Assembly: GCF_988243305.1 (NCBI RefSeq)
Contig: NZ_OZ547139.1
DNA length: 64,000 nt
Reading direction: 5' to 3' (one strand)
Origin: a plasmid
Positions 60,801 to 63,800 of the stretch are shown here, in pieces (position 1 is the stretch's first letter; each line of letters starts with the position of its first letter). Made by a program: the position numbers.

Positions 60801-63800
60801 TGCGCCGTGAAATGTTGTCTCCGGCCTACACCACGCAGTGGAAGGATATTCCCGCGGCGTTTATGCGATAACAGCGATGTGCAGGCCAGTCTGTCAGCCC
60901 TGCAGCCGTTCCTGCTCCTGCAGCAATGCCAGATGGTATGCGGCAATGGCGTTCACCACCCCGGCCGTCATCCGTGCATCGGCGATTGCCGAGTGTGCCT
61001 CCCCTTCCCAGGCCAATGCTGCCTGACTGGCCGCGCTGGCCAGCGAAATGGTGCCATAGCGATTGGTGGCCCCAAAATACCCTGCTGCCAGCTCCATCGC
61101 GCAATATACTGTCAGTTCTCCCAGCCAGTCGGCCGGATCGCCATGTGCGGCGGCCGTCTGTTTCAGAATGCGGGTATCAAAGGGGGCGTTAAAGATAATC
61201 ACTGGCCGGTCCCCGATGGCGTGTCGCAGCTGCAGCGCCACATCTGGCCAGGATGGTGCGCCGCTGAGTGCCGGCTCATCGATACCATGCACGGCGGCGG
61301 CCTGCGCCTCGATGGCGACCGTCGGCTTCAGGCGGGTTTCAAATATCACCCGGCCGGCCGCATCGGTCAGGCCGATTTCCAGCGCTTCTGCGGTATTACC
61401 CAGCCCCGTCGTTTCGGTATCCAGAAAGAGCGGCGCCAGACTCAGCCAGTCGTGTGCCCGCCGTGCCATCCGGCCACTGGTGCTGTTAAGCCGGGACAGG
61501 ACGGAAAGACGCAGGCCGGCCTGCTGCTGCTTCTCGGTCGGCGGCCGTTTTTCCCGCATCGGAACACAGTCTGCAATGCGGTATACGGCGTACTTGCCGC
61601 CATAGGCGCTTTTGTACCATTTCACCGGCTCAGCACCGGGAGCCGGCTTCATTCTGAATTCATCGCGCAGGCGCCCTTTCGTGAAGCACCGATCGCCGGC
61701 TATCGCCTCTGCGCGTCGTGTGGCCAGCTCATCATTCTTCATGGTTATTCCATCTCCGTCAGGCGTTTGTGATAAACCTCTCTGGCGATCTCCAGGCCTG
61801 CCTCTGTCAGCCCAAACGCGAGCGTCAGTGACTGATTATCCCGGTATTTGCTGAGCAGGCCGTGACGGTTCAGCGTATGGCAGGAGCGACGAAAATTGGT
61901 ATCGGCAACGGGCTGGAGGCGTCCCTTATTGAGGATGCTGAAAAGCTGCATCGCCGGGAACGGGCCCGCCAGCTGACGTTCTGCCAGACCATACAGAACA
62001 AACAATACGTCTTTTTGCACACCGGAGAGCCGCATCGAGGGGGCTTTACTTTGCATCTTATTCATGTGTCACGTCATTAAGGAATTAATGACAAAGTAAC
62101 CTAATTGATGTGAGACATCAATAATATTGTGTTCATAACGGGAAATCAGGAGTCCGAAAAAGAAAATGCCGCTCTTGACGGCGGCTTGTTTTCCCTGGTG
62201 TCGGGAGAATTATGGTTTCTGGTCTGGGTCAATGCGCAGGGCGCTGTCTGTGAGCAAATCCAGTGCTGCCGTCAGATGCTGACTCCGCCCGCCGTGATAA
62301 TCCGGCCACGGAAGAAAGGGTTTTGACGTATCAGACATGAACATGATACCGGTCGGGCAGCGCCACTCCGTGGGGGTTCCCTTGTTGTAATGAACCAGCA
62401 GTACTGAACGGTCACACTGCACGTCATTACTGTCATCGTTGTTCAGTACAAAAGTGGCCACGATGCCGGCATCGGGCCTGGACACAAAAAGCAGGCTGTT
62501 GGCAAAAATAACGGCAATCACCACTGAGGCAATGGCCGCACCGGTATACCAGAAACGGCCGTTTTTCCAGGCCCGATAGCCATACAGAATGCACAGCAGA
62601 ATGGCGGCAGCGATACCTGCCCACTGCGCACCGACTGACAGGCGGGAGAGTGCATCCATCGATAACGGCCGGCTCAGCGCATAAAATGTGACAAGGAAAG
62701 GTGAAGCCAGCGCCAGCGTCAGCAGAACGAAAACGAGGGGTAAGAAGCGGTTGCCGGTATAGCTCCCATTGCCAAGCGCCGTCATCGTGCGGATCATCTC
62801 ACTGAACGCCATGATCATCATAAAGCAGCATAAAGCCATGTATAACATTAAAACATCCCCAAACTGTCCGCGTGATATGGCCGGATTTTCGGCCTGTTCC
62901 ACATAGTCCCGACCCCTTATCGGGGTGCATAGCCCTCTTCAGCCAGTGCTTTCATGATCTGGTTGATTCCATCCATCATCAGATATGCCTCAATATCTGA
63001 CGTCGCCAGGCCGCGGCAGTCACTGAATCCCAGCCGCTTAACCAGTTGCGCCAGAGCCTGCGCTTCTCTGTGTGTCAGCTGTATATTCACTTCAACGGGT
63101 TTTTCGTGGCGAATTTCATCTTTCATGGTCAGAGTCCTTTTTTGATGTTTCGTGAAATGTACCAGGCTTCTTTTGCCTGAGCTACAGCCCAGATCCAGAC
63201 GAGAGTTGACACAATGCACAGCCCCGTCATGTTCCAGAAATGACCTGTCGTATATTCATGGCCATGAAGCAGGAGGCCGGCGCCGGCCGCCAGGCTCATG
63301 ACCAGGAAAAGGACGGCTGCGCCGGCGTGATAAATGATGCTGAACATGTAAAACCCCCTTCTGGCGACGGTAGCGCCAGTCTCTGTCTGTATTAAATGGT
63401 CGCCGCCTGCCGGGCGTCTGCCTGCATCATGGCGTCAATCAGGGCGCCGGCGCAGGCAATATTCAGGCACGTCATGTTCGATTTCAGGGTCGCCATCATG
63501 TCCGCGCGGCTTCTTTTCAGAAACGGCTGCAGCGGACCACGATAGCCCTGTGAGGTCACGATAATCAGCTGAGTGGCCGCATCATGCAGTGCCGACACGC
63601 CGGCCAGAATATCCTGCTCAGCCGCGCTGATATACACGGGTGAACCGGCGATCACAAAGCGATCGTCCGGGCAGCGTTGCATCAGCTCAGCCAGGGAGGC
63701 GCAGCGGCCCGCCAGCGGGGGCCGTGCCGTCAGTGAGCCCCAGACGGTCGCCGGCGCGAAGGGCATGGCGTGAAACGTTGCCTCATACGCGACCGCCGGA

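Follow-up and report, generated by a model that had tools for sequence, protein, structure and literature searches.

A predicted winged-helix autorepressor and a YacC-type 3'-5' exonuclease in an optional accessory cassette of IncM plasmids

Introduction

Two tandem genes lying beside the SOS-controlled operon mucAB of an IncM (incompatibility group M) plasmid raise the question of what they encode, how they are controlled and whether their position makes them partners of mucAB. We address this question for a stretch of 64,000 nucleotides (nt) of plasmid DNA (NCBI RefSeq assembly GCF_988243305.1, contig NZ_OZ547139.1), referred to here as the window. Both open reading frames (ORFs) are on the minus strand, an upstream one of 106 amino acids (aa) being followed by one of 282 aa (Table 1). 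A preliminary description of the window had read them as a small DNA-binding protein and a DnaQ-like exonuclease, had placed them behind a palindromic operator and had proposed that together with mucAB they form a cluster for DNA metabolism that could modulate mutagenesis or process incoming DNA. Our analysis favours, with a probability of about 0.6, the reading that the locus is a self-contained and optional accessory cassette of IncM plasmids, consisting of a winged-helix autorepressor gene and a co-transcribed gene for a YacC-type 3'-5' exonuclease. The cassette is real and intact, and it is ordinary in kind: it joins an autorepressor of the known winged-helix type, as predicted from its model, to a DEDDh exonuclease of the YacC family, likewise a known kind, and is not a new kind of system.

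Results and discussion

The 1.6 kilobases (kb) around the two genes are 100% identical to many IncM (IncL/M) plasmids, among them pNDM-HK, pEl1573-type plasmids and relatives of pCTX-M3, in which the ORFs are annotated as '3'-5' exonuclease' and 'hypothetical protein' and have pemIK and umuDC/mucAB as neighbours on one side and small hypothetical genes on the other. The extent of the unit is delimited by IncL backbones of the pOXA-48 type (L040; L numbers designate comparison sequences throughout). In BLAST comparison with the window, homology ends at 62168 and restarts at 60884, and the missing segment of 1283 base pairs (bp) is exactly 60885-62167, beginning just past an upstream terminator hairpin and ending 9 nt after the stop codon of the exonuclease gene, with both flanks collinear and with mucB, umuDC (mucAB) as a whole and the hairpin retained. 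Because these plasmids lack exactly this segment and keep umuDC, we regard the cassette as a discrete unit that replication and transfer do not require and that does not depend on mucAB. The unit of 60894-62120 given in the preliminary description contains both genes, but its end at 62120 cuts the palindrome; the functional unit is 60885-62167. Both genes are under purifying selection, with ratios of nonsynonymous to synonymous substitution rates (dN/dS) of 0.12-0.19 against several homologues and of 0.12-0.17 for the small gene.

The hairpin at the upstream boundary is GC-rich and terminator-like; its T-run, at 62158-62167, falls on the cassette side, and similar hairpins are found in the IncM-like plasmid L031 and in L005. 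Since it closes the upstream gene, which encodes a membrane protein of 230 aa, the intergenic region should hold the operon's own promoter. An Rfam scan of 57-64 kb returned no match. A second, separate indel distinguishes the window from pOXA-48-type plasmids: it spans 62213-62843, that is, most of the ORF of the upstream membrane protein, and between the two indels these plasmids retain only the 45-nt terminator segment 62168-62212.

Sequence models gave little information on the 106-aa protein. It matched no Pfam family at E<=0.1, no NCBIfam model at E<=1 and no PADLOC model, and its sole database match was to phrog_19460 (1.3e-12), a phage family of the PHROG database without assigned function. 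An AlphaFold (AF2) model based on an alignment of 22 sequences reached a predicted local distance difference test (pLDDT) score of 88.7 and has the topology helix, helix, recognition helix, beta-hairpin wing, C-terminal helix; the most conserved stretch of the protein, ADTNFRRSCHTL, is the predicted recognition helix. Foldseek aligned the model with AdcR, ZitR, MepR (including DNA complexes) and ST1710 at E values of 7.5e-5 to 1e-3 and template modelling scores of 0.55-0.69, and further matches were minimal winged helices such as SSV1 F-93 and PadR-like proteins. The protein is thus probably a MarR/PadR-like winged helix and a likely DNA-binding autorepressor. The preliminary assignment as a DNA-binding protein agrees with this prediction, the best PDB matches being repressors of the MarR family, some of them in complex with DNA. 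AdcR, ZitR, MepR and SSV1 F-93 have in common with the model three helices, a wing and a C-terminal helix, and autorepressors of the MarR/PadR type bind a palindromic site over their own promoter, an arrangement that the upstream DNA suggests for the small protein as well. On the other hand, the protein is shorter than MarR (106 versus about 140 aa), lacks the N- and C-terminal dimerisation helices of MarR, matches no MarR or PadR sequence model and sits in the unnamed plasmid and phage family phrog_19460.

The palindrome reported 5' of the small gene is present at 62105-62121 and is longer than had been described: ATTGATGT-ctc-ACATCAAT is a perfect inverted repeat of 8+3+8 nt at 62104-62122, which extends to 10+3+10 nt with one mismatch at 62102-62124 (operator O1, TTATTGATGT-ctc-ACATCAATTA). 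Perfect inverted repeats with arms of 8 nt number two in the intergenic region (145 nt), compared with 0.059 expected from the window-wide density, and at least two occurred in 1 of 10,000 shuffles. The transcript would have the second repeat, GTCATTAA-ttcc-TTAATGAC, at its 5' end; a reading of this repeat as a leader hairpin in the RNA was rejected, as its folding energy (-7.5 kcal/mol, z -1.7) is not significant and the hairpin is not conserved in relatives.

We compared this region with the DNA upstream of small-gene homologues from the IncM-like plasmid, Mixta, Serratia, a Citrobacter IncFII plasmid and six IMG/VR contigs; O1 is conserved at L031, L005, L006, L009 and L017-L022, and the alignment comprises nine sequences. 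In all compared homologues, the proteins of which are 52-82% identical, TTATTGATGTG-N-CACATCAWTAA lies about 50-60 nt before the start codon within diverged flanks. Most of them have another, related site over the start codon, TTAATGATGTGACAC-ATG, and the motif GTGACACATGAAT overlaps this codon in seven of the nine aligned loci; in the window this operator-like site, O2 (TTAATGACGTGACAC-ATG-AATAA), matches TGATGTGNCACATCA with 2 mismatches at 62062-62076. Invariant columns of the alignment are TGATGT, ATC and the T-A-...-T of a hexamer that follows TTGATG at a distance of exactly 17 nt. Because of these columns, the left half-site would be the -35 element, the palindrome would fill the spacer and TAnnnT would be the -10 element; the promoter was assigned by this comparative conservation since a consensus scan gave no call.

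Similar evidence comes from more distant relatives. The IncC homologue has its own palindrome pair, TTAATCATGTGaCACATGAATAA and TTATTCATATCaGACATGAATAA, and distant family members have variant palindromes in which the inner half-site co-varies with the recognition helix (helix 3): RRSCHTL goes with GATGTG in IncM-like plasmids, RTSCHTL with CATGTG in IncC and with CATGC in L023, and SLSCRTM with CATAC in P1-like phage-plasmids. Further copies of the operator, which would define a regulon, are at chance level in the window (4 versus 3.2 expected), and none were found at the IncC exonuclease locus. Because the palindrome is conserved in position and sequence despite diverged flanks, overlaps the conserved promoter, co-varies in its half-site with the recognition helix and has no copies elsewhere in the window above chance, its reading as the operator of a dedicated autorepressor, already put forward in the preliminary description, is well supported, with binding itself predicted from these sequence patterns.

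The same palindromes could in principle be a centromere-like site and the small protein a segregation or centromere-binding factor acting as a partition adaptor. NCBI names many homologues 'chromosome segregation protein ParM', and distant homologues lie next to P1-type repA and iterons or, in Mixta, near parAB. ParM, however, is an actin-like ATPase of about 320 aa (StbA_N/ParM_N domains), the name has no curated family model behind it, and a genuine ParM/ParR pair is encoded elsewhere in the plasmid, whereas the small protein is a 106-aa winged helix whose only two sites in the window are both at the promoter of its own gene. We therefore reject both the label and a role in partition, which is the least probable of the alternatives that we weighed. 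An IncC homologue of 52% identity (L036:5001-5294, record position about 13.3 kb), which follows thermonuclease and HU genes, carries the ParM label. In IMG/VR contigs of 40-89 kb (L025-L030), small-protein homologues of about 36% identity lie just downstream of P1-type RepA and iteron-like repeats, CCAGTTTATAAACAC, and just upstream of a DUF1778/GNAT-type toxin-antitoxin-like pair. A regulator family labelled 'ParM' in about 1,200 IncC plasmids now has a testable operator and a likely function.

The 282-aa protein was matched by Pfam RNase_T (PF00929) over residues 106-262 with 46.7 bits against a cut-off of 24. D108 and E110 (in LDTETTG), D189 (in NAPFD), and H250 and D255 (in HSAIAD) are all present, and each is at least 90% conserved across 42 homologues down to 31% identity; the AlphaFold model (pLDDT 96.6) shows a predicted RNase H-like fold. 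The reading as a DnaQ-like exonuclease in the preliminary description is thus upheld to the extent that a catalytically intact DEDDh enzyme is predicted, none of the five residues whose loss would mark a dead active site having changed. From its sequence, the protein is most likely a Mg2+-dependent enzyme that acts in the 3'-to-5' direction on DNA 3' ends.

Compared with DNA polymerase (Pol) III epsilon (DnaQ) and exonuclease X (ExoX) of E. coli, the catalytic domain is closest to epsilon, but the protein falls far under the DnaQ and ExoX equivalog cut-offs. DnaQ proper was rejected on these grounds (TIGR01406, 46.3 versus 222.7 bits; NF004316, 45.7 versus 196 bits) and for want of the C-terminal polymerase- and clamp-binding tail: its C-terminal residue, 282, lies in the final helix of the catalytic domain, and the extension that it has is instead an N-terminal domain of 100 residues. 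Conserved residues of this domain are L25, P33, C59 and Q72. No relatives of it were found by sequence or fold; searches of a profile against PDB sequences and of single sequences against Pfam gave only noise, namely ependymin and scorpion-toxin fragments at E values of at least 0.036. The DnaQ-like exonucleases of P2/186-like phages (186 Orf80/81 region; PHROG 192, 'DNA polymerase exonuclease subunit') are about 39% identical in the catalytic domain and likewise occur on mobile elements, but they lack the YacC N-terminal domain, the match beginning at about residue 85. The accessory DEDDh nucleases of immune systems, Cas2-DEDDh and CBASS Cap18, have another N-terminal domain and a similarity below that of epsilon and ExoX, and there are no cas or CBASS genes near the cassette.

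Full-length, collinear similarity with 87% identity over 282 codons to the gene that follows yacAB places the protein in the YacC family, of which we found about 50 full-length cluster representatives down to 31% identity. YacC of IncI1/ColIb-P9/R64 and ColV-Ia plasmids (e.g. pS88103) likewise has 282 aa and the same two domains, with 86-87% aa and about 85% DNA identity, and shares with the window gene even the 18 nt that precede the start codon. By these sequence criteria the window exonuclease is an ortholog of YacC, which is annotated only as 'putative exoribonuclease'. The settings of the two differ: in IncI-type plasmids, yacC follows the toxin-antitoxin genes yacA-yacB near the replicon, without the winged-helix gene or the TTGATGT palindrome, whereas in the window the exonuclease gene comes second in an operon that is headed by the winged-helix gene and lies beside mucAB. 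Fragmentary copies are common among the plasmid matches; an N-terminal piece of 157 aa, annotated as hypothetical or DNA-binding, is found in Salmonella plasmids of about 50-150 kb, and an unannotated piece covering residues 154-269 in many Klebsiella plasmids.

The two genes had been described as overlapping by 4 bp, which is incorrect. The junction reads GGAGATGGAA-TAA-CC-ATG, with the stop codon at 61747-61745 separated by the 2-nt spacer CC from the exonuclease start codon at 61742-61740, and the purine-rich GGAGATGGAA in the last codons of the small gene is likely the ribosome-binding and coupling region of the exonuclease gene. The sequence GGAGATG(G/C)AATAACCATG also precedes yacC in IncI-type plasmids that have no small gene. 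Directly before yacC in IncI/K plasmids lies GGAGATGCAATAACC, which is nearly identical to the last codons and stop of the IncM small gene (window 61742-61760 versus L002:2555-2575); this looks like a relic of the small gene and suggests, from sequence likeness, that yacC was captured from an operon of small gene and exonuclease gene. Between the window and L031 (60894-62065 versus L031:5001-6187), synonymous divergence (dS) is 1.13 for the small gene and 0.29 for the exonuclease gene. Because dS differs four-fold between two genes in the same pair of plasmids, we interpret the gene junction as a recombination breakpoint.

The two genes form a unit in IncM plasmids and travel separately elsewhere. 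By tblastn, YacC-type exonucleases are encoded in 3,669 of the 72,556 plasmids in PLSDB, including IncI, IncK, IncC and IncM resistance plasmids. Well over 1000 plasmids have the exonuclease gene but not the small gene, and about 1200 IncC plasmids have the small gene without an adjacent exonuclease gene. The layout of a small autoregulatory DNA-binding protein followed after a 2-nt spacer by a nuclease resembles type II toxin-antitoxin systems, and the IncI-type exonuclease stands directly behind the YacAB toxin-antitoxin pair, so that the cassette might be taken for an addiction module with the small protein as antitoxin-repressor and the exonuclease as toxin. With each gene present in more than 1000 plasmids without the other next to it, with no extra toxin-binding segment in the winged-helix protein and with different divergence histories of the two genes, this is very improbable, and an obligate pair is rejected, the genes not being obligately paired across genomes.

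The exonuclease gene comes after yacAB in IncI/K/B/O and ColV-Ia plasmids, and after a KfrA_N protein in pESI-like plasmids (with a 4-bp overlap), a Citrobacter IncFII plasmid and an IncU-like plasmid; in IncC plasmids the gene before it encodes a tyrosine recombinase, and Tus-like and KfrA genes are on its downstream side. In L031, a co-directional array starts with a KfrA_N gene and ends with the exonuclease gene. The KfrA-led maintenance operons resemble the cassette in that the exonuclease gene likewise follows an autoregulated DNA-binding gene (KfrA_N); they differ in that the upstream gene of the cassette encodes a 106-aa winged helix and not a coiled-coil KfrA. An element of Klebsiella oxytoca (L016:6001-6855) has an exonuclease homologue after a DUF2913 gene, and genes for a solo Cas1-like protein, an AcrVA2-like protein and an ArdC-methyltransferase fusion lie within a few kb of it.

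The winged-helix gene for its part occurs alone, after nuc-HU in about 1,200 IncC plasmids and also in IncFII, Mixta and phage-plasmid-like contigs, or before tightly coupled cargo that is different and unrelated in each element (Table 1), the distance to the cargo being a gap of 2-3 nt or an overlap. As judged from sequence, homologous repressor genes are portable regulatory 'heads' that carry operators of one kind whether they stand alone or precede unrelated cargo.

One meaning of this variable cargo would be a conflict module, in which the exonuclease serves as an effector of defence or anti-defence under winged-helix control and might degrade the DNA of invaders or competitors, or nucleic acids of host immunity. 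The Serratia regulator homologue precedes a HEPN_RiboL-PSP-like protein and those of phages other cargo, one exonuclease homologue is the one beside AcrVA2-like, ArdC-methyltransferase and solo Cas1 genes in Klebsiella oxytoca, and copies are often lost or truncated, as accessory conflict genes would be. PADLOC gave domain-level matches to a Cas-associated DEDDh model (6.6e-26) and to the candidate system PDC-S48 (3.4e-19), but these are to the generic domain and not to a defined system, and there is no partner sensor gene. Most contexts, moreover, are replication or maintenance modules (KfrA, Tus-like, replication protein), and the cassette lies outside the T-strand-oriented leading region, in which the anti-defence genes of plasmids are concentrated (PMC11541004). 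In pNDM-HK it is about 25 kb from nikA/oriT and on the opposite strand, and a leading-region anti-defence location was rejected accordingly. The evidence for a role in conflict is weaker than that for one in the element's own DNA transactions, and we consider it unlikely.

The remaining question is that of mucAB, which converges with the cassette. That the adjacent mucAB is SOS-controlled, as the preliminary description had it, is borne out by the canonical LexA box of mucA, TACTGTATATAAAAACAGTT, at 59149-59168. Of the three exact matches to CTGT-N8-ACAG in the window, the one at 59151 precedes mucA, the others are at 43426 and 58320, and none is in 62066-62210; with no LexA box in this interval, SOS co-regulation of the cassette with mucAB was rejected. 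A functional link could nevertheless be conceived in which the epsilon-like exonuclease works with the SOS-controlled, Pol V-type MucAB, for example by proofreading or by limiting translesion errors on plasmid or host DNA. In favour of such a link are the adjacency in IncM to a mucA gene with a LexA box, the closeness of the catalytic domain to Pol III epsilon, an excess of which lowers SOS mutagenesis in E. coli, and the presence of small-gene homologues beside umuDC-like operons in three contexts, namely IncM, Serratia (with an SRAP gene) and Mixta. Convergent orientation, separate promoters and the lack of a LexA box upstream of the small gene argue against it, and so does the fact that pOXA-48-type plasmids keep umuDC and lack exactly the cassette. 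The exonuclease copies of IncI/K (including IncI1), IncC, pESI-like and IncU-like plasmids are not beside umu/imp genes and adjoin yacAB, a recombinase or KfrA, the protein falls short of the DnaQ equivalog models (46 bits versus about 200), and there is no epsilon-type C-terminal tail. Adjacency to umuDC operons also counts for less in that they commonly flank plasmid accessory regions (PMC11541004). Taken together, a partnership with MucAB is improbable; the proposed functional DNA-metabolism cluster is unsupported, and a new mechanism of mutagenesis control is not supported. Processing of incoming DNA, the other activity suggested in the preliminary description, is conceivable. The umuDC-adjacent small genes (L005, L006/L008, the window and L031) occur in three arrangements, in Serratia with an SRAP/YedK-like gene, and may reflect shared plasmid architecture or a functional tie.

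For the cassette of autorepressor and YacC-type exonuclease, we propose the following working. A weak sigma-70 promoter (-35 TTGATG, 17 nt, -10 TACTTT) would be overlapped by the two-fold symmetric O1, with the related O2 lying over the start codon, and, most likely, a dimer of the MarR/PadR-like protein occupies both of these sites and shuts off the promoter of its own gene. The exonuclease gene would probably be co-transcribed and translationally coupled, giving a low, self-limited level of a product in which the YacC N-terminal domain is predicted to pack on a DEDDh domain like those of Pol III epsilon and ExoX, with a full active site suited to an exonuclease of DNA 3' ends. Its role, the least certain part of our proposal, is tentatively placed in 3'-end trimming or processing while the element itself undergoes nick-primed replication, conjugative DNA processing or maintenance; though itself somewhat short of an even chance, this is favoured over mutagenesis control. 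Pointers to it are the linkage of the exonuclease, in five plasmid lineages, to maintenance genes including KfrA, a full-length homologue directly after the replication protein in Vibrio phage K242, and the catalytic-domain-only homologue at the Orf80/Orf81 genes of P2/186-like phages. In addition, in two metagenomic type IVB (MPF_I) transfer regions of conjugative elements, the coupling-complex subunit DotM/TrbA is C-terminally fused to a YacC-type exonuclease domain (Table 1), one fusion keeping all catalytic residues.

Several points weigh against this reading, in its regulatory part as well as in the proposed role. DNA binding and dimerisation of the small protein rest on a predicted fold that is not accompanied by a match to a MarR or PadR sequence model; the operon promoter, with 7 of 12 consensus positions, was not called by a consensus promoter scanner; the transcription start and the co-transcription of the two genes are inferred; and in the literature on pCTX-M3, IncM plasmids, yacC and DEDDh anti-defence we found no experiments on YacC or the ORF pair, only annotations. 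As to the role, pOXA-48 replicates and transfers well without the cassette, and in pNDM-HK the cassette is about 25 kb from nikA/oriT and on the strand opposite to ssb, antirestriction and other leading-region genes. The DotM fusions are rare: two were found, the active site of one is degenerate, and the closest DotM relatives carry no such fusion. There were no further fusions among 4 scored proteins, and no exonuclease gene lies downstream of the unfused DotM relative.

A wider generalisation, which we regard as doubtful, would be that YacC-type exonucleases are an unrecognised accessory of nick-primed DNA processing in conjugation and rolling-circle-type replication, with the variable N-terminal module as the docking part, and that the phrog_19460 gene with its TTAWTSATGTG-type operator is a portable self-repressing head placed by mobile elements before potentially harmful nucleases (DEDDh here, HEPN-like in Serratia). 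If it held, the two DotM/TrbA-exonuclease fusions would be a 'Rosetta stone' for the docking of YacC on transfer or replication machinery. The sequence itself is already present many times in databases; what the locus offers is a common plasmid gene with about 100 residues of no known relative. The presence of the cassette in IncM and its absence from pOXA-48-type plasmids amount to a natural experiment on its contribution to transfer, stability and evolvability of epidemic resistance plasmids.

Table 1. Features of the cassette, its neighbourhood and related loci. Positions are those of the window unless preceded by an L number.
Feature	Position	Strand	Remark
Whole cassette (promoter/operator, small repressor gene, exonuclease gene)	60885..62167	-	discrete indel relative to IncL (pOXA-48-type) backbones
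Gene for 282-aa YacC-family 3'-5' exonuclease	60894..61742	-	so annotated in identical plasmids
Exonuclease N-terminal domain, residues 1-100	61443..61742	-	predicted helix, small beta-sheet, helical hairpin; family-specific
DEDDh catalytic domain, residues 105-267	60942..61430	-	
Catalytic codons	D108 61419-61421, E110 61413-61415, D189 61176-61178, H250 60993-60995, D255 60978-60980	-	
Purine-rich GGAGATGGAA	61748..61757	-	in last codons of small gene, then TAA-CC-ATG
Gene for 106-aa winged-helix protein, phrog_19460 family	61745..62065	-	putative autorepressor; predicted recognition helix contains ADTNFRRSCHTL
Operator-like site O2	62058..62080	.	spans start codon of small gene
Second perfect inverted repeat	62073..62092	.	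overlaps O2
Candidate -10 TACTTT	62093..62098	-	17 nt after -35; invariant TAnnnT over 9 aligned loci, constant 17-nt spacing
Candidate -35 TTGATG	62116..62121	-	left half of palindrome; invariant columns in 9 diverged upstream regions aligned
Operator O1 (putative)	62102..62124	.	perfect 8+3+8 core at 62104-62122; conserved in homologues
Terminator-like GC-rich hairpin	62168..62185	-	ends upstream 230-aa membrane ORF; terminator scan
LexA box, mucA, mucB	59149-59168, 59184-59618, 59606-60871 (together 59149..60871)	+	convergent with cassette
Coupled cargo, IncM	window		282-aa exonuclease
Coupled cargo, Serratia	L006/L007/L008:5001-6100		257-aa HEPN_RiboL-PSP-like protein
Coupled cargo, Aeromonas phage 59.1			277-aa phrog_17427 protein
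Coupled cargo, Vibrio phage K256			127-aa protein
Winged-helix gene plus cargo loci of these two phages, in this order	L034:3046-4141; L033:3016-3747		
DotM-exonuclease fusion P0228	L041:1582-3573		43% identical to window residues about 90-267; all catalytic residues kept
DotM-exonuclease fusion P0269	L042:5879-7795		37% identical to window residues about 90-267; catalytic residues lost (VETNAT, ENYALSH)

Apart from the cassette and mucAB, the exact CTGT-N8-ACAG match at 43426-43441, CTGTTTTTTTATACAG, lies between two minus-strand ORFs at 42771-43418 and 43498-44487.

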